Of a stretch of DNA of 64,000 nt, positions 2,707 through 23,209 are shown piece by piece (position 1 is the first letter of the stretch; each line of letters starts with the position of its first letter). The translations under genes and the position numbers were made by a program. Below the pieces are notes generated by a model. The model saw only the letters and a list, made by a program, of their open reading frames with translations. It was not told the DNA's origin and searched no databases. Source of the DNA: a virus (taxonomy: Duplodnaviria; Heunggongvirae; Uroviricota; Caudoviricetes); IMG/VR virus record IMGVR_UViG_3300044712_000568, positions 38,155 through 102,154 of that record; one strand, written 5' to 3'.

Positions 2707-2940
2707 ATGCCCTTTGTAGTAATAAGCATTCTTTCTGGAGAACAGTGTAATCTATTTCCAAATGAGTTTTGCGCGTATTCTGAATTTCCTTCTGAATGTG
2801 CTGCAGAAACTATTTTAAATTTATGTATAGAAACACATAATGCTAAAGCAGTGATTCATAATGTGGAAAAAAGATTTATGCGAGAAGAATTTCTAATCCT
2901 AGAGAGATCTTCTATTTCAAATACTCCAGAAAAAACATAG
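2707..2940 (+). CDS. small 'IPxG...EF' paralog family member (divergent)
   Basis: MPFVVISILSGE...FPSECAAETIL...EEFLILE; start moved to the ATG at 2707, after the hairpin. Confidence 0.55.
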   Translation: MPFVVISILSGEQCNLFPNEFCAYSEFPSECAAETILNLCIETHNAKAVIHNVEKRFMREEFLILERSSISNTPEKT

Positions 2941-2947
2941 GAGATTT

Positions 2948-3253
2948 ATGGCATGGGAAGTGTTATGCCTAGTTACAAATGAAACCATCATCATGAATAT
3001 TCCAAACGATGATGGAATTATGGTTAGCACAAGTAGTTGGCGTAGTAAAGCAGACGCTAATTGGGCGATAAAAAAACTAGTAATATATTACAATGACATG
3101 TTAGAGATCTTCTTAGAAGGATACCCTGGAGAAACATCTAGGAAATTTGAAATCTCTAATCATCAACCGCTAACAATTTTTGATTTTGAGGCGGTTAAAG
3201 CACACAAGAAAGAACCTTCATCAAAGAAGAGGAGAACCAAAAATGTCAGCTAA
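2948..3253 (+). CDS. small 'IPxG...EF' paralog family member (divergent)
   Basis: MAWEVLCLVTNE...WRSKADANWAI...FDFEAVK; AGGAG RBS. Confidence 0.55.
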   Translation: MAWEVLCLVTNETIIMNIPNDDGIMVSTSSWRSKADANWAIKKLVIYYNDMLEIFLEGYPGETSRKFEISNHQPLTIFDFEAVKAHKKEPSSKKRRTKNVS

Positions 3254-4607
3254 AGTTGGCGAGGACATTAAGGCATTTTACGAAGATCTGATTAATAATC
3301 AGTGGGATAAGATTGATGAGCCTAATGTCAATCTTCCAGCTCTTCGTTCATTCATTATCAAAACGATCCCGTTCTATGCTTCTGCTTTGCAGTTGGTAGA
3401 TATTGAGATCATCAATAACAAAAAGAATCTTCCTAGCTTTGGTTTTACCAATGGCTATAAGATTTTCATCAGTCCTAAGCTCTACAAGATTCATGGAATG
3501 GTGGTAGAAAAGTCTGGCAAGCCTTGGTTCAAAACTCCAGAGCTTGGTATTACTTTCACTATTCTTCACGAAATCGGACATCTGGTGTTTGATTCCTTTG
3601 GTAGACTTCAGCATCGCTCTCATGAACTTTGGAATGTTGCTACTGATTATCAGATCAATCAATTCGTTGCACGAATCATGAAGGAATCTGGAGTTTTCAA
3701 GTCTGATAAGTCTTACACAGACTTCATGGAAGTAATCAATAAGAACTTCGTGTTCGATCCAGGTAAATATTCTAAGCTTAGTGCCGAAGCCACTTATGAC
3801 GATCTGTATAAGGTCGGTATGAGAGGTAAGGATTACGGTGGTTGGAGTATGAATGGAGATATGGTTGGTGACGGTTCCGGCGCTGATGAAGATGGTAAGC
3901 CTTTGACTCCAGAAGAGCAGATGGCTAGAGATATCATCAAATCTGAATTGAAGGACTATTCAACTAAGAATGCTACTAAGCTTCCCGGTCACGGTTCTTC
4001 ATATGGTCGTGAATTTGAACTTCAGCTTGAACCTCCAAAGGTTAATCTGAGACAGATTCTCAAACATATCACTGATCGTGAAAATACGGAAGATTACGGT
4101 TATAGTCGCCGTGGTTCTCGTATGGATCACATGATGAGTGGTAATATTCGACTTCCTTCGGTTGTCGAATCTAACCCCGATAAGATTCGTAAGGTCATGG
4201 TGGTTCTTGATTGTTCTGGCTCGATGAGTTCAGAACAGCTTAATGATGCGCTTAACATTATCCGTGAGGTTATGGCTAAGCACACCAAGAATCCAGTCCA
4301 TTTGATTCTTCATACGGATACGGTTAACTTCTCTGCTGCCATTAAGGATTACTCAGAAGTTCCTCGCAACATTACTGGTGGCACTGCTTTCCAGCCTGTG
4401 TTGGATGAAATCGAGCGCCTTAGGAAGAAAGAGAATGTTATTCCGAGTGCTGTGATTTGGGTGACTGACCTTTACGGTGAGCTCTCTCAGGAAGATTACA
4501 ATGTTCGGAAGTTCCCGTTCTATAAGAAGCTCAGCTGGATTATCTCCGGATCTAATCTGGAAAGTCCTATCGGTCGTAACTATTGGATCGATGAAGTTGG
4601 CGATTAA
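3243..4607 (+). CDS. HExxH metallopeptidase-like + VWA domain protein (DUF2201-type MoxR partner)
   Basis: FTNG, ILHEIGH, WNVATDYQIN; MIDAS DCSGS, GGTAF, VTD; AGGAG RBS before ATG 3243. Confidence 0.88.
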   Translation: MSAKVGEDIKAFYEDLINNQWDKIDEPNVNLPALRSFIIKTIPFYASALQLVDIEIINNKKNLPSFGFTNGYKIFISPKLYKIHGMVVEKSGKPWFKTPELGITFTILHEIGHLVFDSFGRLQHRSHELWNVATDYQINQFVARIMKESGVFKSDKSYTDFMEVINKNFVFDPGKYSKLSAEATYDDLYKVGMRGKDYGGWSMNGDMVGDGSGADEDGKPLTPEEQMARDIIKSELKDYSTKNATKLPGHGSSYGREFELQLEPPKVNLRQILKHITDRENTEDYGYSRRGSRMDHMMSGNIRLPSVVESNPDKIRKVMVVLDCSGSMSSEQLNDALNIIREVMAKHTKNPVHLILHTDTVNFSAAIKDYSEVPRNITGGTAFQPVLDEIERLRKKENVIPSAVIWVTDLYGELSQEDYNVRKFPFYKKLSWIISGSNLESPIGRNYWIDEVGD

Positions 4608-4615
4608 TGCTGATC

Positions 4616-4650
4616 GGGAGAGTCGTAATAATGCGGCTCTCCCTTTCCTT
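4616..4650 (+). terminator. Rho-independent terminator
   Basis: GGGAGAGTCG-loop-CGGCTCTCCC followed by TTTCCTTT. Confidence 0.7.
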
Positions 4651-4661
4651 TGGAGGATTTG

Positions 4662-5003: not shown

Positions 5004-5025
5004 TTCTAAATACTTGTGGAAGTAT

Positions 5026-5265
5026 ATGATTAAGATTTTGTATGTTCCTGCAGGACAATATCTACATTTTATGATCGATGGTGCTGGAAGGCTTACTGTA
5101 GATTTCGAATCCTCTTCTCTACATATTCGTAATGGATGGTATCCAGATAGATTGTTTAATTCTATATGCCAAGAAGATTCTCTTACTTGGGCTGTTTTGT
5201 GCAGAAACAACAAAATACCGCCATCAACTCCAGTAAGAGAAGAATTTGAAGTAATTTACGACTAG
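5026..5265 (+). CDS. small 'IPxG...EF' paralog family member
   Basis: MIKILYVPAGQY...REEFEVIYD*. Confidence 0.75.
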   Translation: MIKILYVPAGQYLHFMIDGAGRLTVDFESSSLHIRNGWYPDRLFNSICQEDSLTWAVLCRNNKIPPSTPVREEFEVIYD

Positions 5266-5340
5266 GATTAATACCAGGGTGGTGCCTATCAAGATTCATT
5301 GGATAGCGACGATACTATAGGCACTTGAGGAGAACTCTTT

Positions 5341-5796: not shown

Positions 5797-5815
5797 TAGG
5801 TCATTTGGAGGAAAC

Positions 5816-7075: not shown

Positions 7076-7086
7076 TTTGTAACCCC

Positions 7087-9721: not shown

Positions 9722-9940
9722 ATGGCAGTTGTAAAGATTTCTCCAGCGGTTGGTAAGGACATTATTTATGTCTGCACTCATTGCCAAAATCGTGAAAAGG
9801 AATTTGCCTACTCTGATAGACAGTATAAATACTGTTCTAAGTGTGGAAGCACTTCAGTAAAGTCCACTCTTACCGATTCTTTTAACTATGTGTCATCTTC
9901 ATTTACTGATACCTCTTTAACCGAAGATACCTATGAGTAA
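9722..9940 (+). CDS. zinc-ribbon protein
   Basis: YVCTHC...YCSKCGS. Confidence 0.65.
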   Translation: MAVVKISPAVGKDIIYVCTHCQNREKEFAYSDRQYKYCSKCGSTSVKSTLTDSFNYVSSSFTDTSLTEDTYE

Positions 9941-10496
9941 GGTTACAAAAGAACTGGTCCAAGAGAAATTGGGAGAGTGGACCCCTTCCACAAAAGTCCA
10001 AGAAACGCTTGGCCTCTCATCCATGGATGAGGCTCTTTTTAAGAAAGAGTTTCAGGCCCTTGAATCTAAGGGTATTATTGAGAGAGAAGGAGCTAAGAAG
10101 GGTCTTAAGTTTAAATTTAAGATTCCTAAGGAATCTAAGGATGCCTCACCTTCGGATCTCTTGGCATTAATGGGCACTCCTAAGACGGAAAGTCATACAT
10201 CAAAACCTAAATCGAAGAAAGCTGAGAAGCCGGTTGATGTTACTGAACTTGCTGCGGAAGTAACCATTATTCCAAAACACGAGTATCACTCTGAAGTAAC
10301 TAATGTGCCGCTATCTAACCTGTTTTCCTTCATCTTGAAGGGATCTTCTGATGTTGATCGCACTATTGCTTTAAAGCGAACTCAGAAAGGTGTAGTTGTA
10401 AAAACTTACAATGGCATCTATTTACTTTCTGAAGTTCTCTATACAAAGGAAAACTTCAACAAGTTATTAAAAGCATCTGGTATTTCATTGGAATAA
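9933..10496 (+). CDS. hypothetical protein, possible N-terminal winged helix
   Basis: ...FQALESKGIIEREG... resembles a wHTH wing. Confidence 0.55.
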   Translation: MSKVTKELVQEKLGEWTPSTKVQETLGLSSMDEALFKKEFQALESKGIIEREGAKKGLKFKFKIPKESKDASPSDLLALMGTPKTESHTSKPKSKKAEKPVDVTELAAEVTIIPKHEYHSEVTNVPLSNLFSFILKGSSDVDRTIALKRTQKGVVVKTYNGIYLLSEVLYTKENFNKLLKASGISLE

Positions 10497-10498
10497 AG

Positions 10499-11221: not shown

Positions 11222-11240
11222 TTGTTTAGGCATGTTTTCT

Positions 11241-11277
11241 AAGAGGGCTGGCCAAAAGCTGGCCCTCTTATTTTATT
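11241..11277 (+). terminator. Rho-independent terminator
   Basis: AAGAGGGCTGGC-CAAAA-GCTGGCCCTCTT then ATTTTATT. Confidence 0.7.
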
Positions 11278-11294
11278 CAGAAAGAAGGTTTTTC

Positions 11295-11672
11295 ATGGCT
11301 AAAAGAATTCAAAAATACTATTGTTTATTGCATATTCCTACTGGAACTATGATTAAAACTATTAGATTTAATAAAAAAATTCACGGTGAGAATTTTTTAG
11401 ATTTTCTTCCAGTTACTACTAGTAAACAATTCCAAGATCCTGAAACACTTTATTCTATTGTATGGCAGTCAAAAGAATTTAGACGTAGAAAGTATTTGTA
11501 TTTACTCGAAGAAGCTTTATATCCTGATGTTTATAGTGATCCATATCATCAAGAAGATAGAGGTCAATACATACAAGAGCATTTCAGAGAAGAATTTATA
11601 GTTGCATCATATCCAATTTGGGATACTGATGTGAAAAGTTCTCTTGAGTCATTTGAATTGTTTCGTCCGTAA
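11295..11672 (+). CDS. small 'IPxG...EF' paralog family member
   Basis: YCLLHIPTGT...REEFIVAS; start at MAKR after the terminator. Confidence 0.72.
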   Translation: MAKRIQKYYCLLHIPTGTMIKTIRFNKKIHGENFLDFLPVTTSKQFQDPETLYSIVWQSKEFRRRKYLYLLEEALYPDVYSDPYHQEDRGQYIQEHFREEFIVASYPIWDTDVKSSLESFELFRP

Positions 11673-11683
11673 TTGGAGATTTT

Positions 11684-11938
11684 ATGTTACCTAGACCAGC
11701 AATGCGAAGTCAAATTATGCATATTCCAACTGGATTATATTTACATTATTGCTTTTTTCCTCACGATGGACATATACATTTAGTCTTATCTAAAGAACCA
11801 GCATTATATAATCGTAATAATTTAGATTTATTTGAACAAGTATCAAATCCTTCTTGGGATAGATATGTAATTCATAACGGCGATGATCTATTTGATGGAA
11901 CCTGTGACGAATTTGTTTTGGTAGAACAACGTGTTTAA
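11684..11938 (+). CDS. small 'IPxG...EF' paralog family member
   Basis: QIMHIPTGLY...DEFVLVE. Confidence 0.75.
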   Translation: MLPRPAMRSQIMHIPTGLYLHYCFFPHDGHIHLVLSKEPALYNRNNLDLFEQVSNPSWDRYVIHNGDDLFDGTCDEFVLVEQRV

Positions 11939-12182
11939 ATATATGCTTTTACATATCCCAAGTGGAAATTATGTTTCTAAAGTTACAATTGACATAGAGA
12001 AAAAAATGTCATGGAATACTTTTGCCAGAGGGCCCGAATTGATAACAGTTTGGGGATTTGATGTTCCAGCAGATGCAAAACCAATAAAATTTGATTCTAA
12101 AACAAAGGCCAAGACTTGGTTACGTCAAAAAGCTCCCGGCAAACGCGGAACTCTTTTTACAATAATTGAGATACGAGAATGA
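11931..12182 (+). CDS. small 'IPxG...EF' paralog family member
   Basis: MLLHIPSGNY...FDSKTKAKTWL...LFTIIE. Confidence 0.75.
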   Translation: MFKYMLLHIPSGNYVSKVTIDIEKKMSWNTFARGPELITVWGFDVPADAKPIKFDSKTKAKTWLRQKAPGKRGTLFTIIEIRE

Positions 12183-12442
12183 GCAAGTGGCGTATACTTC
12201 ATATTCCATCAGGTAGATTTGTAACTAAAACTGAAAAATTAGCTATTGGAAAATTTGGCTTACAGTTCGAAAATGAATATAGTATTGGAAAATATACTAC
12301 GGGAAAAGTATACGAAGCATGGTTTAAATGGAGAGCAGAAACTATGTTAGAAAATATTTTCGCTGGCTCTGTTAGACCAGACACGGAACTTTTGTGGTTT
12401 AGTGATAATAATAAATGCGAATTTGAAGTGGTAAAAGCATGA
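12179..12442 (+). CDS. small 'IPxG...EF' paralog family member
   Basis: RILHIPSGRF...CEFEVVKA. Confidence 0.75.
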   Translation: MSKWRILHIPSGRFVTKTEKLAIGKFGLQFENEYSIGKYTTGKVYEAWFKWRAETMLENIFAGSVRPDTELLWFSDNNKCEFEVVKA

Positions 12443-12708
12443 AATATCAAATTTTATGTTTAGAATCTTTTGAATTGCTTTACGAAAGAACAGTTGAAAT
12501 AGAAGAAATATGGGAAGACCTGCGGTATACTTATACGGATCATCGGTATTGTTTATCTTCTGATATCCCCAAAGATGCTATTTCTTACTCAGAAGCTAAA
12601 ATAGTAACATTTATGAGTCTTAAAAAAGCTGAAAAATGGATTAAAATTTATTCTACAGAAAACAATTATCCGGCTAATCTATTTGAAATAGTTAGAGCAG
12701 ATGGCTAA
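12439..12708 (+). CDS. small 'IPxG...EF' paralog family member (variant)
   Basis: YQILCLESFE...FMSLKKAEKWI...LFEIVR. Confidence 0.68.
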   Translation: MKYQILCLESFELLYERTVEIEEIWEDLRYTYTDHRYCLSSDIPKDAISYSEAKIVTFMSLKKAEKWIKIYSTENNYPANLFEIVRADG

Positions 12709-12994
12709 GTATAGAGTATTATCACTGATCAGTTTTGAATTTATTGTGGAACTTGATTGTATGGTATTGGATACTAATACTCCAAGTGGCATTAAAATTA
12801 TAAAGCGATATTGCGAAATTAGTGATCTAGGACGTAGAAATTTAATCCCTGGTAAGATGTTAAATCCTTTAGCGTCTACCCCAAAAGTAGCAGAATTTAT
12901 GAGCCGAAAGAAGGCTGAAAAATGGCTACAAAATTATTGTGCGACAAAAAGTTTAGACCCAGTTTTATTTGAATTGGTAAAACAAAATGGCTAA
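12701..12994 (+). CDS. small 'IPxG...EF' paralog family member (variant)
   Basis: YRVLSLISFE...FMSRKKAEKWL...LFELVK. Confidence 0.68.
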   Translation: MAKYRVLSLISFEFIVELDCMVLDTNTPSGIKIIKRYCEISDLGRRNLIPGKMLNPLASTPKVAEFMSRKKAEKWLQNYCATKSLDPVLFELVKQNG

Positions 12995-13397
12995 AGAAAA
13001 ATATACAATTATGCATATTCCATCTGGATATCTTTGGCACAGTAGTTTAATTTTTGATAAGAAAAGCAAAGCTATTGGTTTTTTAAATAGTCTTCCAACT
13101 AAAGATGGACGTTTAGATTTTAGTGAAACTCATGGACTAGATTCTTTTCGTGGAATCAAAGCTAAAAAATTAGATATGGCTCGAAAATTACGTTTAATTG
13201 AAATTAGAAAAATTGAGGGTCTTCTTAGTATGGCTGTTTATACAAATAGCAAAGATCCCAGGAATGTCTATAGAGATTTAATAAATTCTAGACGAGCCGT
13301 GAATGAAATGCTTTTAGTAGAACTAGCGGTAGTTCCAATAAAAGAGTCACATTTAGAAATGTTAAATAATATAGTTAAACCAGAAGAGGACGAATGA
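12987..13397 (+). CDS. small 'IPxG...EF' paralog family member
   Basis: YTIMHIPSGY...FDKKSKAIGFL...VELAVVP. Confidence 0.7.
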   Translation: MAKEKYTIMHIPSGYLWHSSLIFDKKSKAIGFLNSLPTKDGRLDFSETHGLDSFRGIKAKKLDMARKLRLIEIRKIEGLLSMAVYTNSKDPRNVYRDLINSRRAVNEMLLVELAVVPIKESHLEMLNNIVKPEEDE

Positions 13398-13843
13398 AAA
13401 GATACATGGTAACATTAAACGGTAATCCATTTTATGGATTAACTTATACTCATACTAAGACTAATGTTAGATATTTTTATGATTATATTACAATGCAGGT
13501 GGAAGGAGCTTTTGATACATTAGTTGATTTTCCATCTGAACGAGAGGCTAAATTATGGCTGATTTCAAAATCATCCATTCAAAGTCTTAAACATTATATG
13601 TATGCTTTAGCGTGTTTACCCGATGAAGAACTCGATAAAATTATAGCTAAAGGTAAATATAAACTAAGCAAAGCAATGATGAGAGAATGCGATATAAATA
13701 TCAGCAACTCTAGCACTCGAACTTCGTTTTCGAGAGCAGATTATCCATTGCTTTGTGAATTTGTTATTGTGGAGTATGAGGCGAATGTCTTACAATCGAA
13801 ACAAGGGAACGATGTGGATAGTATTGAATCTTCTGACAAATGA
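13394..13843 (+). CDS. small 'IPxG...EF' paralog family member (divergent)
   Basis: RYMVTLNGN...FPSEREAKLWL...CEFVIVEY. Confidence 0.6.
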   Translation: MKRYMVTLNGNPFYGLTYTHTKTNVRYFYDYITMQVEGAFDTLVDFPSEREAKLWLISKSSIQSLKHYMYALACLPDEELDKIIAKGKYKLSKAMMRECDINISNSSTRTSFSRADYPLLCEFVIVEYEANVLQSKQGNDVDSIESSDK

Positions 13844-14144
13844 AGTATTAAGCGAAGTTACTCCAGATAAGGAAAAATATCGTAATTCTGTAATAAAAGA
13901 CTTAGCTTTTAATTTAGATAAATATACAGGAAAATATCAAGAGCAGGCATTTAAATTAGTGCTAGTGCCTAAAAAATTTCTATTACTACATGATGCTAGA
14001 AAAGCATTATTTGAATGTGTTAAACCAACTCAAGACGAATTACTTCACTATGAATTCGTCCTTTTAGGAAAAGACGGAGAGCCTGTGGGATCTATCTTTC
14101 CGAGGAATAAAGATGAGGCTAGTTATACTAAGCGACACCCATAG
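13785..14144 (+). CDS. small 'IPxG...EF' paralog family member (divergent)
   Basis: WIVLNLLTNE...FLLLHDARKAL...YEFVLL; GAGG RBS before 13785. Confidence 0.58.
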   Translation: MSYNRNKGTMWIVLNLLTNEVLSEVTPDKEKYRNSVIKDLAFNLDKYTGKYQEQAFKLVLVPKKFLLLHDARKALFECVKPTQDELLHYEFVLLGKDGEPVGSIFPRNKDEASYTKRHP

Positions 14145-14781
14145 TAATTTAATAAACGATCTTATACCGAATGGTGATGTTCTTATTCACGCTGGCGATT
14201 TGTCAGTCTCTGGATCTATTCCAGAGCTTAATAGAGTTGGACAAGAACTCGGCAAGTTACCACATCCAGTTAAGCTTGTCATTCCAGGCAATCATGATTT
14301 CTTATTCCAACATTCTCCGAGACTTGCAAGAGATTTAATGGGAGCTGATGTTACTGTTTTAATTGATGAAGCCATAGAAATTAATGGCATCAAATTTTAT
14401 GGCAGTCCCTGGCAACCTGAATTTTTTAATTGGGCTTTTAATTTACCACGTTTAGGTTATGAACTTGAAGAAGTCTGGAAAAAGATACCTGACGATACTG
14501 ATGTGCTTATTACACATGGTCCAGCAAAAGAACGTCTGGACTTTGTTCCTAGAGGCCAGTTTGTAGGCTGTGAAGCGTTAAAGGCCAGAATTGAACAATT
14601 GGATAAGCTTAAACTCCATTGTTTCGGTCATATTCATTATGGATATGGTTACGAATATTATCGCAATAAGTTATATGTAAATGCGGCTCTTTGTGATAAC
14701 AGAGATTGGATTGTGAACAAGCCAATTGTAGTAGACATTGATGAAGTTACCAAAGAAACGAAGGTAATACAATATGAGTAA
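14113..14781 (+). CDS. calcineurin-like metallophosphoesterase
   Basis: SDTH, HAGD, GNHD, THGP, FGHIH motifs. Confidence 0.93.
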   Translation: MRLVILSDTHSNLINDLIPNGDVLIHAGDLSVSGSIPELNRVGQELGKLPHPVKLVIPGNHDFLFQHSPRLARDLMGADVTVLIDEAIEINGIKFYGSPWQPEFFNWAFNLPRLGYELEEVWKKIPDDTDVLITHGPAKERLDFVPRGQFVGCEALKARIEQLDKLKLHCFGHIHYGYGYEYYRNKLYVNAALCDNRDWIVNKPIVVDIDEVTKETKVIQYE

Positions 14782-15334
14782 AGATTATTGGTATATTTTA
14801 CATATTCCAACTGGTGGTATTTTAGAATATCATAATAAAAATTATTCTAAAGTTAGACACGCGAATTGGAAAAAAGCACAAAAAACTCTTAAAATTAGTG
14901 GAACAGAAAATAAACTCTTACATAAATTAGGACTATATCCAGAAGTAGACGATTGGTCTTATTCGAATATTCCTAATTCGTCTCAGCAATCAGATGACGA
15001 TTTTGTAGCTTGGGTAGCATTGCCAATAAAAACTACTACTACTTCTGAAGTAGACTACATTTTTAGAATTCAGGCTATGCATTTTGCTACATTACTTGAT
15101 ACCAGACGAAGTAATTCTATAATGAAATTTGTTGATAAACTTGATGCTAGAGATTGTCTTAAATTTATATTACTTAATGCTAAAATGATGGGCTATTCTA
15201 AATATTCCATAGATGAATTTGCTGTTCTGTGTTCTGATGGAAGTATGTATGATTTCCAATCACAAACTTTGGCAGCAAAACGAAAGGCAAAGCAACTACA
15301 AACGCAACAAGATACTGTAGTAGAAACTACCTAA
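14774..15334 (+). CDS. 'IPxG...EF' paralog family member (long insert)
   Basis: YILHIPTGG...FVDKLDARDCL...DEFAVL. Confidence 0.7.
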   Translation: MSKDYWYILHIPTGGILEYHNKNYSKVRHANWKKAQKTLKISGTENKLLHKLGLYPEVDDWSYSNIPNSSQQSDDDFVAWVALPIKTTTTSEVDYIFRIQAMHFATLLDTRRSNSIMKFVDKLDARDCLKFILLNAKMMGYSKYSIDEFAVLCSDGSMYDFQSQTLAAKRKAKQLQTQQDTVVETT

Positions 15335-15360
15335 ATTAGTCCTAAAGATAATAGGCTTAT

Positions 15361-15654
15361 ATGTTTAAAAAACCTAAACTCCGTCTTGGAAGACAACCGT
15401 CAAATAGAAATCTTCCAGCAAAATCAAGTGATGGTAAATATTGTATTCTAATTGTAACCTCAAGCAGAATTCTTAGATGGCCATATCGAGCTACTGAAAA
15501 TGCTCCTATGTATAATACTAGGAAAGACGCTGAAAAAATCCTTAAAGCATATGTCACATTTGCCAATAATAATAGGGATACACATATCAAACGCATGATC
15601 GAAGAGTTTGAGATTGTTGAGTTTAATGAGGAAACAAAAGAATTAATTTCATGA
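15361..15654 (+). CDS. small 'IPxG...EF' paralog family member (divergent)
   Basis: YCILIVTSSR...YNTRKDAEKIL...EEFEIVEF. Confidence 0.6.
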   Translation: MFKKPKLRLGRQPSNRNLPAKSSDGKYCILIVTSSRILRWPYRATENAPMYNTRKDAEKILKAYVTFANNNRDTHIKRMIEEFEIVEFNEETKELIS

Positions 15655-17102
15655 AAGCAACCAAGAAGTCTAACACTAGAATCCAGCTAGAATTTGATGA
15701 TGAAAAACAAAGAGAACAGCTGGCAAAACTAGTATCCTACACAATCCCAGGCTATCAGCATACGGTAGCCTATAAATCTCGAAAATGGGACGGGACAAAA
15801 TGTTTTTTGACTCCAGCTAATACTCTACCTATTGGTTTGTTTAAGACGATCTTTCCCGACCACTCACTGGTCTTCGATAAAGACTTCAGGGATATTGGGT
15901 TTGACGATATGGATTTGTTTATGAGATTGCCGTTAGAACGCAGAGAGTATCAGCTTGAAGCTATCAATACTATACTTAGAAATAAGATGGGAATTGTAAA
16001 TGCTATTATGGGAGCTGGTAAAACTCTGATAGCTGCTGGAGTATGTTCATATCATTTATCGTGCAACCCAAAGAATAAAATTCTTTTTGTTGTATATGAT
16101 CGGAACATACTCTCTCAGACTATAACTAACTTTAAAAAATATGGATTTAATGTAAGTCAATTTGGAAGTGGTGTTAAGGACTTGGGTGGTGACATTGTAG
16201 TTGCTACCATCCAGTCTCTTAACAATATTGAGAAACCAAAGGAGGTTTTGAAACATGTTAGTTTTGTAATAATGGATGAAGCGCATCACTCTGGATCAAA
16301 GACCTCAAAATCTATGATCACTAAATTACCCAATTGCCAATATTTTATAGGCCTTACTGCTACACCACACGTAAAAAGAAGCCTTGAAACAGCAGAACTT
16401 ATGTCTGTTTTAGGGCCAGTTATTTACGAATATGGATTTAGTGAAGGTATTCAAGATAAAAAAGTAGCTCCGGTTAAGGCATTTTTTCTAGATGTTGATC
16501 CTGATTGGGATATTAAAGAAATAGTATTTCCCAGAAAAAATTATAAACTCATTTGGGATACGGCCATTCAGAATAATGCGACGAGAAACCAGCTTATAGC
16601 TGACGTTCTTCATTATTGTGTTGATCTACTCGAAACACCAAACCTCGTTTTAATCGACCGTGTGGAGCATGGAGTGACCTTGTGCGACTCGCTTAAAACA
16701 CGCGGAGTAATCAAAGCAACAACCATGTATGGATCTGACGATATTGGGATGAGAGAGATCAAGAAGTCCCATCTGATGACCGATACTATCAATACCATCG
16801 TTAGCACCGTCATCAAGGAGGGTGTTGATTTTAAGATAAGTCCAGTAGTTGCGGTGAACGCATCTGGTCGAAAGAGTTTCGTAAGTCTCATTCAATTTTT
16901 GGGTCGAGTAACCAGACCTAATGAAAAGTTTAAAACTTTTAGATGCTACATAGATTTTATAGATCACTACCACCCATTTCTCAGGGAGCATTCTCTTGAG
17001 AGAATTGAAGCGTGTAAAAGCTTCGGAGTAGAAGTAGTAGTTTGTAAATCTCTCAAAGAACTGATTACAGAAATAGTCAAACACTACAAAGAACATAATT
17101 AG
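15651..17102 (+). CDS. SF2 DEAH-box DNA helicase (UvsW-like)
   Basis: KWDG N-motif, REYQ, GAGKT, DEAHH, TATP, QFLGRVTR. Confidence 0.9.
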   Translation: MKATKKSNTRIQLEFDDEKQREQLAKLVSYTIPGYQHTVAYKSRKWDGTKCFLTPANTLPIGLFKTIFPDHSLVFDKDFRDIGFDDMDLFMRLPLERREYQLEAINTILRNKMGIVNAIMGAGKTLIAAGVCSYHLSCNPKNKILFVVYDRNILSQTITNFKKYGFNVSQFGSGVKDLGGDIVVATIQSLNNIEKPKEVLKHVSFVIMDEAHHSGSKTSKSMITKLPNCQYFIGLTATPHVKRSLETAELMSVLGPVIYEYGFSEGIQDKKVAPVKAFFLDVDPDWDIKEIVFPRKNYKLIWDTAIQNNATRNQLIADVLHYCVDLLETPNLVLIDRVEHGVTLCDSLKTRGVIKATTMYGSDDIGMREIKKSHLMTDTINTIVSTVIKEGVDFKISPVVAVNASGRKSFVSLIQFLGRVTRPNEKFKTFRCYIDFIDHYHPFLREHSLERIEACKSFGVEVVVCKSLKELITEIVKHYKEHN

Positions 17103-17109
17103 AGGCATT

Positions 17110-17337
17110 ATGGATTGGGATATTTTACATTACGACATAGATGTTGAAGATAGACCCAAAAGTAAAAAGCTCTCTGCAATAATTTTGGCTCACTATTGTA
17201 AAGACGGACTCCTTAAAAAAGGAACTTCTAATTCTTGTAATAGATGCAGTGGTAGTTTAGTTTCGTTTAGAATAACTAATTTAGAATTTCAAAAACGTAA
17301 AGCAACGGAACGAAGTCAAAAGAACAAAATCTATTAG
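17110..17337 (+). CDS. hypothetical small Cys-containing protein
   Basis: 75-aa ORF with HYC...CNRC. Confidence 0.45.
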   Translation: MDWDILHYDIDVEDRPKSKKLSAIILAHYCKDGLLKKGTSNSCNRCSGSLVSFRITNLEFQKRKATERSQKNKIY

Positions 17338-17360
17338 TATTAAGTTAACTTAAAGTAGTT

Positions 17361-18725
17361 ATGGAAACCACAACATTACCGTTTGACGGAAAATTTCAGA
17401 GCGGTCTACTCTATCTGTTAATCACGGATTACGAATTCTTACGCAATAGTATAGAGGATCTCAGCCAAAAGCATTTTGACGCTGGAGAAACTCATATTAA
17501 ATTGTTTAAGTTAATCAAGTTAGTCTATGAAAAGACTAAGAAGCCTCTCTCATTAAGTATTATTAAAAACTCTATTCTTCAACTCCAACTTCGCGGAACT
17601 TATTCTGAGGGTGATACTTTCGGAATGACTAATATTCTCGATGCTGGTAAACTCATGACTCCCTCAGAGTATGAATTTATTAGAGAGAATTGCTATAACT
17701 TCTTAAAGAAGCAAACTATGGCTCTGGCATATGCGGAGTCTCTTGCTTATTATGAGAAGGGTGATTATGATGAGCTTTATTCAATTATTGGCAAAGCTTA
17801 TAAGAAATCATTTGGAATTGAAAACAGCCTTGGAATCGACTATTTAAATGATTCAGTTCACGACCGCTACTCTGAGCCTCCCAGAACCGGAATCTGGTCA
17901 ACCGGATTTGAACGTCTTGATAGCTTTATTGATGGAGGAATGGCTAAAAAAGAATGTTATACAATCCTGGCCCCAACCGGACGAGGCAAGACTGCGTTAC
18001 TATGTAACTTTGCAGTATCTGCGATCAAACAAAAACTCAAGACTCTATTCATTACACTTGAGATGTCTGAGCGACAGATATGTCAACGGTTTGATGCTAT
18101 TATTAGCGGCTTCTCTCCATCGGAATTAGCTTCTTTACCAGAAGCTCGTGTTGAGCTTCAGAGACGCATTTCAGAAGAACTTCACGGATCTATGCCTTTT
18201 GTAAAGGGATTTGATCGAGGAAAATTAACTGTTGCCGGTCTTAAGACATATCTTGAGAGATTCTCTATGGAGAATGGAACTCCTGAAGTTGTCATTCTCG
18301 ATTGGTTCGGCTGTCTAAAACTTCCTACTAATACTGATAAGAAACATGAAGCTCTTGCAGAAGTAGCTGATGAAATCATCAATATGAGTCGTGAGTTCAA
18401 TTGTTCTATTCTAGGGGCGCATCAGACTAACCGAGGCGCAGTAGGATCTGACGTATTTGGTTACGATAAGGTATCTGAATCATTCTCAAGCTTGTTTGGT
18501 ATGGATGCCGTATTCGCATTAGGCGCATCTGACAAGGCCAAAGATGCCGGAAAGCGAACTCTTAGTATTGCTAAGAATCGTATGGGTCCAGATTCGGTTT
18601 ATGTAAATCTTATGGGTAATAAACCCAGTGAACCTTTAACTTTTAAATTTACGGAAGTTCCTTCTGAGGAAGAAGAAGCTTCTTTATTATATCCTGATTC
18701 GGAGTCTGACAAAAACTCCGACTAG
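17361..18725 (+). CDS. replicative SF4 DNA helicase (DnaB/T4 gp41-like)
   Basis: STGFERLD, APTGRGKT, ITLEM, ILDW, HQTNR, SES, KNRMG. Confidence 0.92.
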   Translation: METTTLPFDGKFQSGLLYLLITDYEFLRNSIEDLSQKHFDAGETHIKLFKLIKLVYEKTKKPLSLSIIKNSILQLQLRGTYSEGDTFGMTNILDAGKLMTPSEYEFIRENCYNFLKKQTMALAYAESLAYYEKGDYDELYSIIGKAYKKSFGIENSLGIDYLNDSVHDRYSEPPRTGIWSTGFERLDSFIDGGMAKKECYTILAPTGRGKTALLCNFAVSAIKQKLKTLFITLEMSERQICQRFDAIISGFSPSELASLPEARVELQRRISEELHGSMPFVKGFDRGKLTVAGLKTYLERFSMENGTPEVVILDWFGCLKLPTNTDKKHEALAEVADEIINMSREFNCSILGAHQTNRGAVGSDVFGYDKVSESFSSLFGMDAVFALGASDKAKDAGKRTLSIAKNRMGPDSVYVNLMGNKPSEPLTFKFTEVPSEEEEASLLYPDSESDKNSD

Positions 18726-18734
18726 TGGAGTTTT

Positions 18735-19214
18735 ATGCCATACGGAATTTTACATATCCCAACTGGGAATTTAGTTTATAGTGAATTTCATTGCGATCTT
18801 CAACATAAACTCTTTAGAGACGAATACAAAGCATGGCTTCATAACGATAAACAGTCTGATAAATCTGAAGAAGACCGAGAGGGTCTTGTATCTATGGATT
18901 TATACGGATTCTTTTTAGGAACGGATCTTTCAACTGAAGTTGGAACTCCGTTCTTCTTTTTGGTAGCTCTTGAAAATAAGAAATTTCTTAATAGAATAAT
19001 TCACCTAAGAGATTTTAGAGAGCAGTTAGGATTGGATCTAAATCCAGGAATGGAATGGGATCAATTATCACATGCCCTAACACAAAATCCGCAACTACTT
19101 CCAGATGTTTCTGAATTCGAAGTCGTTGAATTGCCAAAAGATACTGCAACTATGCAGGATAATTATCGCTTAATGTGGAAGGAAGTAGAAGAACTTAATA
19201 CTGAGAGTGCATAA
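18735..19214 (+). CDS. 'IPxG...EF' paralog family member
   Basis: YGILHIPTGN...SEFEVVE. Confidence 0.75.
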   Translation: MPYGILHIPTGNLVYSEFHCDLQHKLFRDEYKAWLHNDKQSDKSEEDREGLVSMDLYGFFLGTDLSTEVGTPFFFLVALENKKFLNRIIHLRDFREQLGLDLNPGMEWDQLSHALTQNPQLLPDVSEFEVVELPKDTATMQDNYRLMWKEVEELNTESA

Positions 19215-19215
19215 T

Positions 19216-19440
19216 ATGACAAAAATTCTTTGTGTAGTTACTGGAGAATATGTTCATTTTTTAACATCCACTGAATTTGATGAAAAGTGCAGAGCTTCTA
19301 AAAAATCTGTTGATGAGATAACTATTAATTGGGAAGAATCATTTTCTCGCACTGCTGGAAGAAGCTTATCGGATCATATAGCCATACTTGCTGATCAAAT
19401 TGAGTTACCTATAGAAGCATTTGAGATTCAATATGACTAA
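19216..19440 (+). CDS. small 'IPxG...EF' paralog family member
   Basis: MTKILCVVTGEYVHF...WEES...EAFEIQYD*. Confidence 0.72.
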   Translation: MTKILCVVTGEYVHFLTSTEFDEKCRASKKSVDEITINWEESFSRTAGRSLSDHIAILADQIELPIEAFEIQYD

Positions 19441-19645
19441 GATACTTTATATACCAACTGGTGAATTTGTCATATTTTATACTTGTTTTAGTGGTGGTGC
19501 AACTACTACTTACGAAGAAACCGCATATCATAATGTAAAACATTTATCTCCACAAGAATTTATTGACAAGCAGATTGTTCAATATTTTAAAGAGGGTAAT
19601 GGAAGTAATGTAACTCCATTAGAATTTACTGTGGTGACAATATGA
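19433..19645 (+). CDS. small 'IPxG...EF' paralog family member
   Basis: MTKILYIPTGEFVIF...YEET...LEFTVVTI*. Confidence 0.72.
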   Translation: MTKILYIPTGEFVIFYTCFSGGATTTYEETAYHNVKHLSPQEFIDKQIVQYFKEGNGSNVTPLEFTVVTI

Positions 19646-19848
19646 CTAAAGTGTTAGATTTAACTGATCATGAATTTTTACTATTTATAACATCTGTTGA
19701 ATACGACAATTTACACGGATTAAAAGTAACAGATGAGAATTATACATTAATATGGGAAGAGTCTTATGCATATTCTGTTGGAGAATCTTTAGAAGAGTGG
19801 TTAGAAGATTGTCAGCCACTTTATTTATTTGAGATAATGTATGACTAA
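19642..19848 (+). CDS. small 'IPxG...EF' paralog family member
   Basis: MTKVLDLTDHEFLLF...WEES...LFEIMYD*. Confidence 0.7.
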   Translation: MTKVLDLTDHEFLLFITSVEYDNLHGLKVTDENYTLIWEESYAYSVGESLEEWLEDCQPLYLFEIMYD

Positions 19849-20095
19849 ACTTTTATATCTTCCTACTAATGAATATCTTAAATTTTGGATTGAGGATGGA
19901 GATAATGGAACCGGTTTTAATACTACAAAAATAGAATCTGCTGGCAGTTATCTTACTCCAAGATATCGTTCAGTTGAAGAAGCTGTTGAGGCTGTTGTTA
20001 AAGCTTCTCCTGGATCTATTCTTTTTTTAGAAGTAAACAATATACAACATTTACCAATCTTACGAGAAGAATTAGAGGTAATCTACGATGAGTAG
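19841..20095 (+). CDS. small 'IPxG...EF' paralog family member
   Basis: MTKLLYLPTNEYLKF...REELEVIYDE*. Confidence 0.75.
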   Translation: MTKLLYLPTNEYLKFWIEDGDNGTGFNTTKIESAGSYLTPRYRSVEEAVEAVVKASPGSILFLEVNNIQHLPILREELEVIYDE

Positions 20096-21002
20096 ACTCA
20101 TATTTAAAACACTAGCTGGATCTAGATTATACGGAGTAGCAACAACTGATTCTGACTATGATTACAAAGGAGTCTTTTTAGAAGATCTACATGAGCTTTT
20201 AAACAAAGACGATGATGTTAACAGAACTACAGATCCGACTAAAAATACTGAATCTGAATTATTTAGTTTAAATTATTACATGAAGTTATTGGGGCAAGGT
20301 CAAGTAATACCTTTGGATATGTTATTTGCTCCAAAAGAATTTTGGACAGATTCTTCAGATGAATGGAAAACAATTCAGAAGCATAGAAAACTAATGGTAT
20401 CTTCTAACATAACTCCTTTCGTTGGGTATGCTAAAGGCCAAGCTATGAAATATGGCTTGAAAGGAAATAAAATTCAAACCATAGAAGTAGCAATGGGTTT
20501 AGTTGATGCTGGCCTTGATTTTGATGCTATTTGCCAAGGGTTAAAAGGCATGGATGGAGTTGTATTTGAAGTAGAAAAAACAACCAATAAAGATATACGA
20601 CATATTGTTATATGTGGTAAATCTTTTGGGGAAACTACTAAACTTGATCTCTGGAAAGGCCCGTTAAACAAACTAAGAAAATCTTTTGGTAGACGCGCAG
20701 AACAAGCCGCTGATGGTGTTGATCTTAAAGCACAATACCATACTGTAAGAATATGTTCTGAGGCAATAGAGCTTTTAACCACTGGAGAGCTTACATTCCC
20801 TAGGCCAGAAGCCGATACTCTAATCAAGATACGGGAGGGTCATTACTCTACCACTCAACTTGAAGAAATGGTTGAATCTTATTTTGATCAAGTTAAAGAA
20901 GCAGAACTTGTTACAAGACTTACCCCTAAGCCAGACTTTGCTAAAATGGATGAATTGGTATATAAATTACAAGCATCCTATCTATTGGAGGTTATGCAGT
21001 GA
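20088..21002 (+). CDS. DNA polymerase beta-superfamily nucleotidyltransferase (T4 NrdC.11/RlaP-like)
   Basis: AGSRLYG...DSDYDYKGVF; GYAKGQ; K..YHTVR...ELLTTGELTFPRP. Confidence 0.85.
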   Translation: MSRLIFKTLAGSRLYGVATTDSDYDYKGVFLEDLHELLNKDDDVNRTTDPTKNTESELFSLNYYMKLLGQGQVIPLDMLFAPKEFWTDSSDEWKTIQKHRKLMVSSNITPFVGYAKGQAMKYGLKGNKIQTIEVAMGLVDAGLDFDAICQGLKGMDGVVFEVEKTTNKDIRHIVICGKSFGETTKLDLWKGPLNKLRKSFGRRAEQAADGVDLKAQYHTVRICSEAIELLTTGELTFPRPEADTLIKIREGHYSTTQLEEMVESYFDQVKEAELVTRLTPKPDFAKMDELVYKLQASYLLEVMQ

Positions 21003-21307
21003 AAATTTGGGTAGTTTATGGATATAATGAAATAGAAAAAGTTTGGGATGAACTAGATTATAACTCTAATTTTCGTAATATTAGATATTTTATGAATCCC
21101 AAAAGTAGGCGACTTAGGACAGCCAGAGAGCACGGATTCGCTAAGTTTGTTTTTGTAAGACGAAGCAAAGAAGCTCTTTGGTGTTATAATCCTATTCATA
21201 ATAAGCCATTAATTCCATACAAAGAGTATTTTACATCACCGAGAGTAGATGTCCTTCTCAGAAAGTTAGCTAAACATGAGAGAATTGCTTTACATACCGG
21301 GAGGTAG
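20999..21307 (+). CDS. hypothetical basic protein
   Basis: GTG start with GGAGG RBS, coupled to neighbours. Confidence 0.55.
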   Translation: MKIWVVYGYNEIEKVWDELDYNSNFRNIRYFMNPKSRRLRTAREHGFAKFVFVRRSKEALWCYNPIHNKPLIPYKEYFTSPRVDVLLRKLAKHERIALHTGR

Positions 21308-21548
21308 AATTATCCGGTTTACGGATAGACGGCCATTTGATACTTCATTCGAAGATCGGCTCGTTGAACTCTCATTAATGAAACACCAAATAACTTCCGA
21401 ATATGGTTTTTTATTAGCCATTGTTTGTGGAGAGCTTTCTCCAGACTTTTATGAAATGCACGATATTAAATTACCTGCATTACTAGATGAATTCGAAGTT
21501 ATTAATTTACCAGACCCTCCGGAATCAACCGAGCATGAAGAATCTTGA
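21276..21548 (+). CDS. small 'IPxG...EF' paralog family member
   Basis: ELLYIPGGRIIRF...DEFEVIN. Confidence 0.7.
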   Translation: MRELLYIPGGRIIRFTDRRPFDTSFEDRLVELSLMKHQITSEYGFLLAIVCGELSPDFYEMHDIKLPALLDEFEVINLPDPPESTEHEES

Positions 21549-22272
21549 TACTCCTATTAATTTTCAATGGTTAAGTTTTATATTTTTAGCAATAATCTCT
21601 TCCTACTTTACTTACACTTTATCTTATGAATTGGGAACAACGCCCGTAGAGAAGACCGCTCTTATTGCTGGAAGTTTAGCTATTGAAGTTATTAAGATGT
21701 ATTCATTGATTCATGCTAATACTTTACTTTCTACAAAAAAGAAGTATAAAACTCCTAAACTATTAGTGTTATATGGCACTTATAGTTTTGTTGCTTTTTA
21801 TTCACTCTTAGCTAGTTTTGGTTATGCCCTTTCCACCGTTGACAAACTCGTAGAAACGTCAACTATCGTATCAAATGAAGATTCGATTAGTGTGGACCGT
21901 CAGAATATGAACCTCTTGGATAGGTCGATTGAGCAAGTTAATTTTAATATTAAATTAAAGCAGGACTTAATTTCCGCCTTGCCAATGGACAATATCAACA
22001 GACGCTTGTCATTATTAAATTTAATAAAAACAGACGTTGCCTCTCTGGAAGAGTATTCGCAAAAGAAAACTGAATTGCAAGCTAAGATTAGTAAAAAGCA
22101 ATTAGAAGCCCAAGCTCAAAAAGTAACAGTAAAGAAAACAATGTATCAAGTTATTGGAACTACTTTAGGAATAACTCCAAGGTGGGTAGCCTTTGCTGTA
22201 TTGTTTTTATTTGCGTTATCAATTGAGCTTGGGATATTCATAACATCACCACACAATTTCTTGTATCAGTAG
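21535..22272 (+). CDS. membrane protein (three N-terminal TM helices, coiled coil, C-terminal TM helix)
   Basis: hydrophobic segments flanking a heptad-rich region. Confidence 0.7.
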   Translation: MKNLDTPINFQWLSFIFLAIISSYFTYTLSYELGTTPVEKTALIAGSLAIEVIKMYSLIHANTLLSTKKKYKTPKLLVLYGTYSFVAFYSLLASFGYALSTVDKLVETSTIVSNEDSISVDRQNMNLLDRSIEQVNFNIKLKQDLISALPMDNINRRLSLLNLIKTDVASLEEYSQKKTELQAKISKKQLEAQAQKVTVKKTMYQVIGTTLGITPRWVAFAVLFLFALSIELGIFITSPHNFLYQ

Positions 22273-22275
22273 GTT

Positions 22276-22587
22276 ATGTCCGTTCAAATAATGACTGTAA
22301 CTTTCGAAGAATTAGAATCAGGTGCGCCAGCTATCAATCTGTGTTCTGAATTCTCAATTCCTATTTCTAACAAAACTTTTGTAAAATCTTTCATCAGCTA
22401 TTATACAAATGACCTTAAATTTCGCTTAGAGACTATCTCTGGTAATAAATTATCATTTAAATGGTTATCCGAAGATGACGATATTATAGAAGTTTATTTC
22501 AAAGGTGATATGGTTGGATACGCAATGGGAGCCGATGTTAAACAGGCTTTTGTTGGAGTTCTCCAATGTATGCTTTCGGAGAAATAA
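22276..22587 (+). CDS. hypothetical protein
   Basis: 103-aa ORF in the operon. Confidence 0.55.
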   Translation: MSVQIMTVTFEELESGAPAINLCSEFSIPISNKTFVKSFISYYTNDLKFRLETISGNKLSFKWLSEDDDIIEVYFKGDMVGYAMGADVKQAFVGVLQCMLSEK

Positions 22588-22943
22588 TGCTTGCTCTATT
22601 ACACATCCCTTCAGGGCAATTAGTAAAACTTTCCTTTACCGGAACTGGAGTAAAACCTCCAGTTGTAGATCTTGAATTCATTTATAAGAATGAGTTTTAT
22701 CGCGGTGATGTAAAATATTCTTTTTCAGTATGGCTGGAAAAGTTACAAGCAAAAATTATAGCAGATGCTATGCCAAGTTATGACGCATTTATTAAACAAA
22801 ATCCAATGCTAAAAAATGCTGATACTGTTCACGCAGAATTTGCTATTGTTGAAATAGATCAAGCCACTGGATATCCAAATATGTCATTAGAAAATGTTAA
22901 GATACACACCAAAGAAGAATTTAAGGAGACGGTGCAAAAATGA
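22587..22943 (+). CDS. 'IPxG...EF' paralog family member
   Basis: MLALLHIPSGQLV...AEFAIVE; GGAG RBS. Confidence 0.72.
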   Translation: MLALLHIPSGQLVKLSFTGTGVKPPVVDLEFIYKNEFYRGDVKYSFSVWLEKLQAKIIADAMPSYDAFIKQNPMLKNADTVHAEFAIVEIDQATGYPNMSLENVKIHTKEEFKETVQK

Positions 22944-23209
22944 TTAAACTTTTATATGTGCCATCTGGCGAATGTATTCAATGGCAAGCATGTCAAGAAG
23001 AATTTGCTAAAACTGGAAATGAATTCACTGTAGACTATAACAAGTCTCATTGGAAAGAGGCTTGGGGAGACTCTCCCGATACTCTGATTCCTCATTTTTG
23101 CAATCCGGATAATGAGGAAGATACTAAAAAGATGCATAAGATTCCCATCAAAATTGAATTGGATCCGAAAGAGTTTGAACTTATCTATGAGAACGAGACG
23201 GCGCCTTAA
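22940..23209 (+). CDS. small 'IPxG...EF' paralog family member
   Basis: MIKLLYVPSGE...KEFELIYE; AAGGAG RBS. Confidence 0.75.
   Translation: MIKLLYVPSGECIQWQACQEEFAKTGNEFTVDYNKSHWKEAWGDSPDTLIPHFCNPDNEEDTKKMHKIPIKIELDPKEFELIYENETAP

Follow-up and report, generated by a model that had tools for sequence, protein, structure and literature searches.

A miniprotein family in the early arm of a large phage

The stretch of DNA analysed here (the window; 64,000 nt) comprises bases 38155-102154 of a 230,154-bp single virus contig, IMG/VR record IMGVR_UViG_3300044712_000568 (hereafter G000), and coordinates are window positions unless stated otherwise. Between the core genes of its early arm lie tandem, overlapping arrays of small open reading frames (ORFs) with similar ends and diverged middles, the miniproteins that are the subject of this study. 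G000 is 93% complete (CheckV) and, at its size, lies above the 200-kb mark of jumbo phages; it encodes a sigma-70 factor, pieces of a family A polymerase, DnaB- and UvsW-like helicases, a ligase, a ClpP-like protease and a MoxR/VWA pair. No close cultured phage was found, with the UvsW-like helicase and MoxR being 28-30% and 24-26% identical, respectively, to proteins of cultured phages.

A sequence-only reading of the window had proposed a family of about 22 small proteins, and all 22 ORFs are open on the plus strand at the starts it listed, encoding 68-186 aa. It had assigned the N-terminal motif (H/Y)(I/V/L)P(T/S/A/G)(G/N) to 13 of them, and a strict-motif scan ([HY][IVL]P[TSAG][GN]) recovered all 13; across the whole genome, the scan returned 22 ORFs of at least 45 aa, 21 with the motif near the N-terminus. 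An iterated leave-one-out position-specific scoring matrix of the N-terminal block scored 31 ORFs at 13 bits or more, compared with 0.8 per shuffled genome. Among these 31, picked by their N-terminus only, a simple form of the proposed C-terminal E-F motif, EF-(x)-[IVL], was present in 20, whereas of 209 other small ORFs it was present in 29 (p 7e-9); a C-terminal pattern tuned after seeing members occurred in 23 of 31 versus 14 of 209. Membership held for 21 of the 22 ORFs, 16 being recognized at 10 bits or more by a hidden Markov model (HMM) trained solely with 116 sequences taken from other genomes (null 0.2 per genome) and five joined by BLAST links, but not for the ORF at 13785. Genome-wide, the same independent HMM yielded 31 ORFs at 10 bits or more (null 0.2) and 36 at 8 bits or more (null 1.2), and an HMM from database matches including G000's own proteins yielded 35 at 10 bits or more versus 0.2. 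The miniprotein family is real and larger than first reported.

The family had been described as spread through the early arm, but it extends beyond the window: members also occur at genome positions C1:8476-26974 and C1:184110-197025. One member lies on the minus strand (L002:1013-1321; genome C1:184510-184821), the only such case found. G000 has 30 tRNA calls in two clusters (genome C1:1466-23559 and 203879-221651), and miniprotein genes are interspersed among the tRNAs of the first. The proposed helix start F/Y-x-S/T-x-x-x-A is present, but in one subclass only (36 of 132 pooled sequences with both end motifs).

Over 293 pooled sequences, the consensus reads M-(Y/T)-(K/R)-I-L-(H/Y)-I-P-(T/S)-G-x-(Y/F)-(L/I/V), followed by a variable middle and E-F-E-(I/V)-(I/V). 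Conserved residues beyond a hydrophobic core include Leu (95%), Gly (89%), two Glu (81% and 84%), His/Tyr (84%) and Lys/Arg (71%), and the insert columns hold no conserved residue. The strict motifs are 42-133 residues apart (median 62) in the 132 sequences that carry both, and the shortest full member has 49 aa (G002 6461). Subclass A, defined by the aromatic-x-S/T-x-x-x-A helix start, and subclass B, of the MTKILYIP...FEIIYD type, are homologous end to end, their profiles aligning at 98.5% (hhalign).

The proposal that this is not a described family still stands, without a family match in Pfam, PHROG, NCBIfam or PADLOC. The 22 ORFs matched no Pfam or PHROGs family; among 98 members (alignment A4), no Pfam, PHROG or PADLOC family was matched by more than three, one and one members, respectively, and no NCBIfam family by more than one of 104 members (alignment A5). 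Rfam gave no hit in window 1-33000, three family members tested had no match in the cultured-phage collection, and no longer or fused forms appeared among 5,317 candidates, the last being weak evidence; one zinc-ribbon fusion was seen in the relative G002. No description of the family was found in the literature on paralog arrays, variable scaffolds, shared anti-CRISPR (Acr) folds and cassette shuffling; this coverage took in few subscription papers and not the supplements to PMC7913775 and PMC7824862, which may bear on novelty.

Copy number and spread

Four long loci, two of them the same sequence, were reached through MoxR (71-77% identity), and the junction pattern described below led to four viral contigs, on which the profile had 35, 47, 49 and 34 matches. 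Over a shared 19 kb, G001 and G003 are 99.95% identical; they were counted, together with G004, whose match pattern is the same as that of G001, as one phage. G000 carries 31-36 copies; at a threshold of 8 bits (null 0.6 per 230 kb), 53 of the 84 genes in the early-arm fragment G002 (36 kb) and 52 of the 75 in G003 (29 kb) are members, or 63-69% of called genes, and the locus L004 holds 11 in 21 kb, one of them doubtful. Arrays reach 15 members, and the gaps between core genes that they occupy differ by lineage. Compared in copy number and order, as had been recommended, the relatives share core genes in the same sequence along the DNA (about 45-79% identical) but differ in where the arrays are placed.

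A profile of 39 members matched 182 proteins at E<=0.001 among 1.84 billion representatives; 147 of the 150 matches listed are 59-137 aa long (some being G000's own), and the three long proteins look like chance matches. Public data hold at least 180 miniprotein clusters at 50% identity. For 17 window members, reciprocal best matches numbered seven in G002 and five in G003, one each at 40% identity or more. The best match lay within the same genome for 23 of 49 members in G002 and 25 of 48 in G003, but for only two of 17 in G000. In closer relatives, known as proteins only, full-length orthologs were found for the members at 22940 (87%), 11684 (69-83%), 2948 (67%), 12179 (65-66%), 15361 (57-64%) and 19841 (59-61%). 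Because these orthologs match along their whole length, the middles are old and selected, not scrambled. The middles have indeed diverged, but calling them hypervariable was an overstatement, since orthologs keep them (57-87% identical over length); the term is better read as anciently diverged.

Selection on the ends and double-coded junctions

Purifying selection is stronger on the ends than on the middles. Non-synonymous over synonymous divergence (dN/dS) was 0.15/0.64 in the first 14 codons, 0.47/0.80 in the middle and 0.13/0.59 at the C end, corresponding to ratios of about 0.23 and 0.59 for ends and middles, in 14 paralog or ortholog pairs of at least 45% identity that are not independent (one is identical) and whose dS is near saturation. 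Because dN is low relative to dS at both ends, these are constrained as protein.

The last codons of a miniprotein gene are used twice. Of the 86 internal junctions in G002 and G003, 84 fall in the range -20..+3 nt; overlaps of exactly 8 nt, in which the last-residue codons contain the next ATG, account for 42 of the 86. Among 88 glutamate codons located 3-13 nt ahead of the next ATG, 68 (77%) are GAG, versus 123 of 560 (22%) elsewhere (96 junctions, p 1e-23). Because GAG is enriched just before the next start, the last strand spells a Shine-Dalgarno sequence. The same junction type starts non-family genes, for example the RlaP-like gene at 20088, whose GAGG and ATG are both contained in the last codons of the 19841 member. 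This DNA side, including the signs of recombination at junctions presented below, had been missed by the sequence-only reading.

Two other accounts of the ends, conservation as a DNA repeat only or as a ribosome-binding site only, were rejected: synonymous divergence at the ends (pS 0.43 and 0.41) is close to that of the middle (0.49), the first motif glutamate is mostly GAA (70 of 93), and in 16 of 99 members the motif is still there with at least 10 aa of tail.

A stem of at least 10 bp is found 18-25 nt before nine of 30 array heads and before none of 101 internal members, and promoter-like sites number 55 versus 68.5 by chance. Perfect 11-15-bp hairpins, each followed by a T run and then by nearly the same AGAAAGAAGG-type ribosome-binding site, occur at window 11240-11270, L020:6087-6118, 9917-9945 and 18362-18390, and L022:14160-14192. 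These elements leave no room for a promoter ahead of the array, and read-through or an upstream promoter would be needed. Ahead of one array in G000, G002 and G003 stands an HTH_3 gene (10499-11221 in the window), considered as a candidate for a small aca-type regulator of the kind that accompanies anti-CRISPR genes, but it is a conserved gene of 226-240 aa, with a hairpin in between. A long imperfect hairpin of about 25 bp is also seen at window 2620-2690, between MoxR and the first miniprotein gene.

Turnover of the arrays

All 28 exact repeats of at least 20 nt in G002 begin no more than 30 nt from a family start, as do 24 of 33 in G003 but none of four in G000 and none of one in L004; short exact repeats may come from protein conservation and codon bias. 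Four exact tracts of 43-59 nt are located at junctions of genes with middles only 61-69% alike and point to exchange or conversion there. A 239-nt exact repeat, from a one-gene duplication, is present in two assemblies. Further marks are a member with a doubled N-motif and a member split into two ORFs, and a zinc-ribbon small ORF that stands alone in G003 (L022:4962-5204) has a similar one fused before a miniprotein domain in G002 (L020:7893-8255). Finally, six miniprotein genes in G002 (L020:13644-15410) occupy the place of the N-terminal 254 aa of the AAA+ protein at window 7108, of which residues 255-380 (126 aa) remain in an ORF that restarts from a family junction.

Between G001 and G003, eight of nine single-nucleotide polymorphisms (SNPs) fall in family genes, which make up 8,701 of 19,018 bp (46% of the DNA; p 0.01), and all nine are non-synonymous, but they are clustered, six in two neighbouring genes, and assembly-derived. 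A tree of 126 members was poorly resolved (four of 122 branches starred, quick search) and was not used for event order.

The phrase 'interchangeable, hypervariable' could suggest fast targeted mutation, an idea that found no support: there is no reverse transcriptase, no variant was seen in three other samples and orthologs remain 57-87% identical. Targets of a diversity-generating retroelement were rejected on two grounds, as the reverse transcriptase PF00078 is absent from the 93% complete G000 (the control found it in three of 14 genomes), and as template/variable repeats lack support, with none of four exact tracts of 20 nt or more at family starts and no differences in the contigs of four runs, which drop rare variants. 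G000 sequence is contained in four rhizosphere metagenome runs from four studies, one possibly its source; no RNA dataset containing it was listed.

Predicted fold and structural neighbours

AlphaFold2 modelled window 15433-15651, within the 15361 member, from a 104-sequence alignment with a predicted local distance difference test score (pLDDT) of 88.7 and a predicted template modelling score of 0.76, placing a strand at residues 2-7, short strands at 12-13 and 27, a helix at 30-46 and a strand at 59-64. For the 12179 member (16 sequences), pLDDT was 61.1 overall, with confident ends (81 and 84). The predicted core is thus a hairpin-helix-strand with two insert sites, one between hairpin and helix and one between helix and last strand, and the last strand would pair with the hairpin. 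The idea of a conserved scaffold with variable inserts therefore gained support from the confident model and from subclass homology, although 'interchangeable, hypervariable' inserts in the sense of fast targeted mutation gained none.

The best match among 48,161 solved chains was 8g9s_A (Z 5.9, root-mean-square deviation 2.8, 61 of 70 residues aligned, 16% identity), followed by Tic22 (Z 5.7, 5.3 and 4.2) and TTHA0547 (4.4), all others being at 3.7 or less, among them I-TevI (2.9); Z values under 8 may reflect only a common arrangement. The low-confidence second model also had 8g9s_A among its matches (Z 2.4). By elimination, 8g9s_A is probably AcrIC8, since the sister entry 8g9t_A aligns like AcrIC9. 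The entry stems from a paper on AcrIC8- and AcrIC9-bound Cascade, according to which AcrIC8 wedges into Cascade via Y11, loop G21-E29 and S56/R58 (10.1101/2023.08.05.552134). By residue number, these contacts fall about where the miniprotein inserts lie: behind the first strand, in the stretch that joins hairpin and helix, and in the one that joins helix and last strand.

Foldseek gave no match at E<=0.001 against the PDB or BFVD. In BFVD, the same simple fold recurs in many uncharacterized phage proteins (top rows at probability 0.87-1.0, E 0.03-0.1), and phage proteins of similar fold are only 10-20% alike. The nearest ESM Atlas clusters are unnamed viral hypothetical proteins (0.81 and 0.86, below the 0.9 bar); DUF2483 and Phage_Y01A reached only 0.75-0.79. 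We regard the AcrIC8 match as a likely precedent for the way in which such a fold could work, not as a sign of membership. For the anti-defence role suggested earlier, it offers a weak structural lead.

Genome setting

Window features are listed in Table 1. MoxR and VWA are the best-kept early genes across relatives (71-79% identity), and MoxR/VWA-type pairs are described for jumbo phages (PMC7824862). The MoxR AAA+/metallopeptidase-VWA pair (window 1322-4607) is interrupted by miniprotein genes, two in G000 and 8-14 in G002 and G003, and relatives carry the counterpart of the 2948 member between MoxR and VWA. The 15361 member keeps its place directly upstream of the UvsW-like helicase in G000, G002 and G003.

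Table 1. Miniprotein genes and associated features of the window
Feature	Position	Strand	Evidence
Member, 77 aa, subclass A, weak	2707..2940	+	8.0 bits (independent HMM); BLAST E 7e-5; E 3.6e-8 with A5, of which it is part
Member, 101 aa, subclass A	2948..3253	+	68% to P0055; E 8e-8 to G003 member
Member, 79 aa, subclass B, solitary	5026..5265	+	29.2 bits
Terminator-like hairpin, 13 bp, 24 nt ahead of largest array	11240..11270	+	
Member, 125 aa, first in main array	11295..11672	+	21.7 bits
Member, 84 aa, start possibly 11702	11684..11938	+	18.3 bits; orthologs 69-83%
Member, 83 aa, subclass A	11931..12182	+	20.3 bits
Member, 87 aa, low-confidence model	12179..12442	+	34.3 bits; orthologs 65-66%
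Member, 89 aa, subclass A	12439..12708	+	13.4 bits
Member, 97 aa, tandem paralog of 12439	12701..12994	+	33% identity, E 5e-12 pairwise; BLAST E 1.5e-9; independent HMM just 2.7 bits
Member, 136 aa, family link via N-terminal part only	12987..13397	+	10.9 bits
Divergent member, 149 aa	13394..13843	+	9.6 bits; E 5e-8 to G002 member
Claimed ORF, membership unsupported	13785..14144	+	3.0 bits; 0.9% profile probability; no BLAST link at E 0.05
Member, 186 aa, long first insert, long tail	14774..15334	+	19.1 bits
Member, 97 aa, modelled from 15433	15361..15654	+	29.9 bits
Member, 159 aa, first behind DnaB-like helicase	18735..19214	+	24.6 bits
Member, 74 aa, subclass B	19216..19440	+	22.3 bits
Member, 70 aa, subclass B	19433..19645	+	32.8 bits
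Member, 68 aa, subclass B, divergent N-motif	19642..19848	+	7.2 bits; BLAST E 3e-9
Member, 84 aa, subclass B	19841..20095	+	28.2 bits; orthologs 59-61%
Member, 90 aa	21276..21548	+	21.3 bits
Member, 118 aa	22587..22943	+	23.7 bits
Member, 89 aa, subclass B	22940..23209	+	25.2 bits; orthologs 60-87%

Several other genes of the window were recorded. An RlaP-type nucleotidyltransferase gene spans 20088-21002 and a hemerythrin-domain gene 36924-37343. The family A polymerase PolA is divided over three ORFs (window 25022-28797), comprising the exonuclease and PolA start (25022), a 223-aa ORF without assignment (26817) and the PolA remainder (27439); G001 has the same three ORFs plus a 270-aa ORF ahead of the third. 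Window 39579-49713 contains two tail-fibre-like genes of 953 and 2118 aa, both with a C-terminal S74 chaperone domain, and behind each, on the minus strand, a similar 195-209-aa gene starting MTLPASG. Host hints were sparse: among GTDB genomes there was no MoxR relative and the junction pattern gave 0 matches, and the best matches of HU (40-47%) were taxonomically mixed.

Discussion

Our preferred reading, in which our confidence is evenly divided, is that the miniproteins are a birth-and-death library of small host-protein binders, likely directed against host defences, a function that we infer. The fixed ends would form the folded core, and the variable middles would likely be loops, each for a different host protein; binding would most likely blunt defences or redirect the host early in infection. 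Arrays may grow and turn over by tandem duplication and by unequal crossing-over between the look-alike junctions of roughly 50 nt. Because each copy ends in a ribosome-binding site, often with an ATG, any copy newly made or reshuffled would immediately be translated, and the gene behind it would not be silenced. Useful variants would be kept for long as orthologs, and other copies would decay. Acidity, a trait noted for anti-CRISPRs (PMC7913775), was common among members (pI<5.5 in 16 of 33, 33 of 52 and 32 of 51, versus 42 of 142 other small ORFs).

Several observations weigh against this reading, in addition to the limits of the dN/dS pairs and SNPs given above. Member acidity stems partly from the Glu-rich end. 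With dN/dS below 1, the middles show no positive selection. G000 itself shows no sign of recent junction exchange (none of four exact tracts of 20 nt or more at family starts), and contigs of four runs, covering 21-30 of 30 bins of window 10400-23400, contained no differences, indels or credible joints, although contigs drop rare variants; short 19-48-nt matches of other contigs, without repeated flanks, were taken as chance. The G000 arrays look old and quiet. Structure predictions cover two members, one of them poorly (pLDDT 61), and the Z of 5.9 is below the 7-8 typical of unrelated best matches and tied by Tic22. Foldseek retrieved 8g9s_A at E 5.4 only, and 8g9s was not listed at E<=10 when four family profiles were compared with PDB sequences. 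Because the fold is common in uncharacterized phage proteins, it says nothing on function.

The strongest competitor, which we nevertheless consider unlikely, is an adaptor repertoire, in which the conserved face docks on one shared partner (MoxR/VWA, the ClpP-like protease, sigma, RNA polymerase or the miniproteins themselves) and the variable part recruits clients. Conservation does exceed the hydrophobic core, extending to L, G, two Glu, K/R and H/Y, while phage proteins of similar fold share little sequence, but the polar residues among them may simply form pairs across strands and a turn motif. Coupled translation would supply the members in matched quantities, and MoxR and VWA are the early genes best kept in all relatives. 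Against a special link to MoxR/VWA/ClpP, which the sequence-only reading had raised and which we could not sustain, adjacency is not specific, as the relatives' arrays occupy many different gaps and not just those beside these genes. Moreover, MoxR homologs occur in 584 cultured-phage records, in the collection where the three family members had no match, and G002, with its 53 members, has a second AAA+ gene without its ATPase part.

A largely neutral or selfish expansion, in which a self-coupling cassette is multiplied by recombination slippage between its similar ends and the majority of copies contribute little, strikes us as improbable. It would account for the lineage-specific runs, the exact duplicate, the split and scarred copies, the damaged neighbour gene, the relaxed middles and the few 1:1 orthologs at distance (one reciprocal pair of at least 40% for the 17 window members versus G002 or G003). 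Yet nearly all copies are intact ORFs with both ends, the ends are under purifying selection, orthologs keep their middles and the position of the 15361 gene is the same in three lineages. Given the limited room in a capsid, it is unlikely that 8.7 of 19 kb would be carried idle.

Still less probable, in our view, are packaged and injected proteins that would be targeted to the capsid by their conserved ends, in the manner of T4 Ip1-3. The miniproteins are most constant over their first 12 residues, and T4 Ips share only an N-terminal leader, each blocking a different GmrSD enzyme (PMC12373910). Here, however, both ends are conserved and predicted in one folded core, not in a cleavable leader, the bodies are homologous, and the arrays neighbour replication genes rather than the virion arm. 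Degenerate GIY-YIG nuclease domains or other small DNA/RNA binders are very improbable: the Y-K-I-x-x hairpin and F-E-I strand look similar by eye, I-TevI appears at Z 2.9 and 2.0, GIY_YIG_2 is matched by one of 98 members (E 0.068) and homing endonucleases are present in these genomes, but profile-profile probability (hhalign) is 0.3-0.5% in three comparisons, the invariant YIG glycine and catalytic arginine (G6, G21, R29) have no counterpart and most members are acidic. The remaining probability belongs to functions outside these readings.

Returning to the binder library, we also entertain, tentatively, a bolder version: an antibody-like phage library with an Acr-type scaffold, two free loops and 50 or more copies per genome, reshuffled by recombination at coding junctions with their own ribosome-binding site, each new or chimeric copy being expressed immediately and put under selection against another of the host's defence proteins. 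In large phages, the small early genes are mostly without function, and inhibitors are usually found singly, as unrelated proteins. If some members inhibit defence, the arrays would be a ready natural screening library and a direct test of specificity gain by duplication and loop change, and possibly also a 50-90-residue scaffold for binder design. The double-coded junction would be a simple mechanism for array growth inside coupled operons without breaking them.

Comparison with known systems

The kind of system is already known, as paralog expansions, inhibitor sets, repeat shuffling and counter-defence amplification have been described; what we did not find in the libraries and literature searched are the family itself, its density and the double-coded junction. 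With a genome above 200 kb, dozens of paralogs, lineage confinement and within-genome duplications, the miniproteins fit a lineage-specific jumbo-phage expansion. Bacillus phage G likewise has dozens of small paralogs of unproven function, about 35 copies of a zinc ribbon (PMC7824862), whereas the miniproteins have another fold, are denser (63-69% of genes in two early-arm fragments) and possess two insert sites and ribosome-binding junctions.

In the PeSL cassettes of RB49 and phi1, short look-alike sequences between non-essential genes promote recombination shuffling, as proposed here, but these are non-coding promoter-terminator units flanking unrelated ORFans (PMC2839356), whereas miniprotein junctions are coding and have hairpins only at some array heads. 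T4 tifA, a counter-defence gene, likewise gains copies through recombination, accompanied by deletions elsewhere, but these are transient identical copies of one gene (PMC9391042) rather than an old diverged family.

On the structural side, Tic22 and TTHA0547 match as strongly as AcrIC8 (Z 5.7, 5.3 and 4.4) and also appear in the ESM Atlas search, but the matched part is 60 residues of a 200-260-aa cellular chaperone, with 10-16% identity and no other link. AcrIC8, a type I-C/I-E Cascade inhibitor, resembles the miniproteins in its length of about 70-80 aa, as the best match of the confident model and in having loops at about the insert positions. It differs in lacking detectable sequence similarity to the miniproteins, the match being weak and tied with Tic22, and in being a sparse single gene beside aca4 and Tn3 transposases (PMC7913775) rather than one of 30-55 arrayed paralogs. 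The closest functional analogy is that of T4 Ip1-3, a set of small accessory proteins that have one end in common but differ in their bodies and of which each acts against a different defence variant; these share a cleaved leader only, have non-homologous bodies and number three to ten (PMC12373910), whereas the miniproteins keep both ends, predicted to fold together, in dozens of copies.

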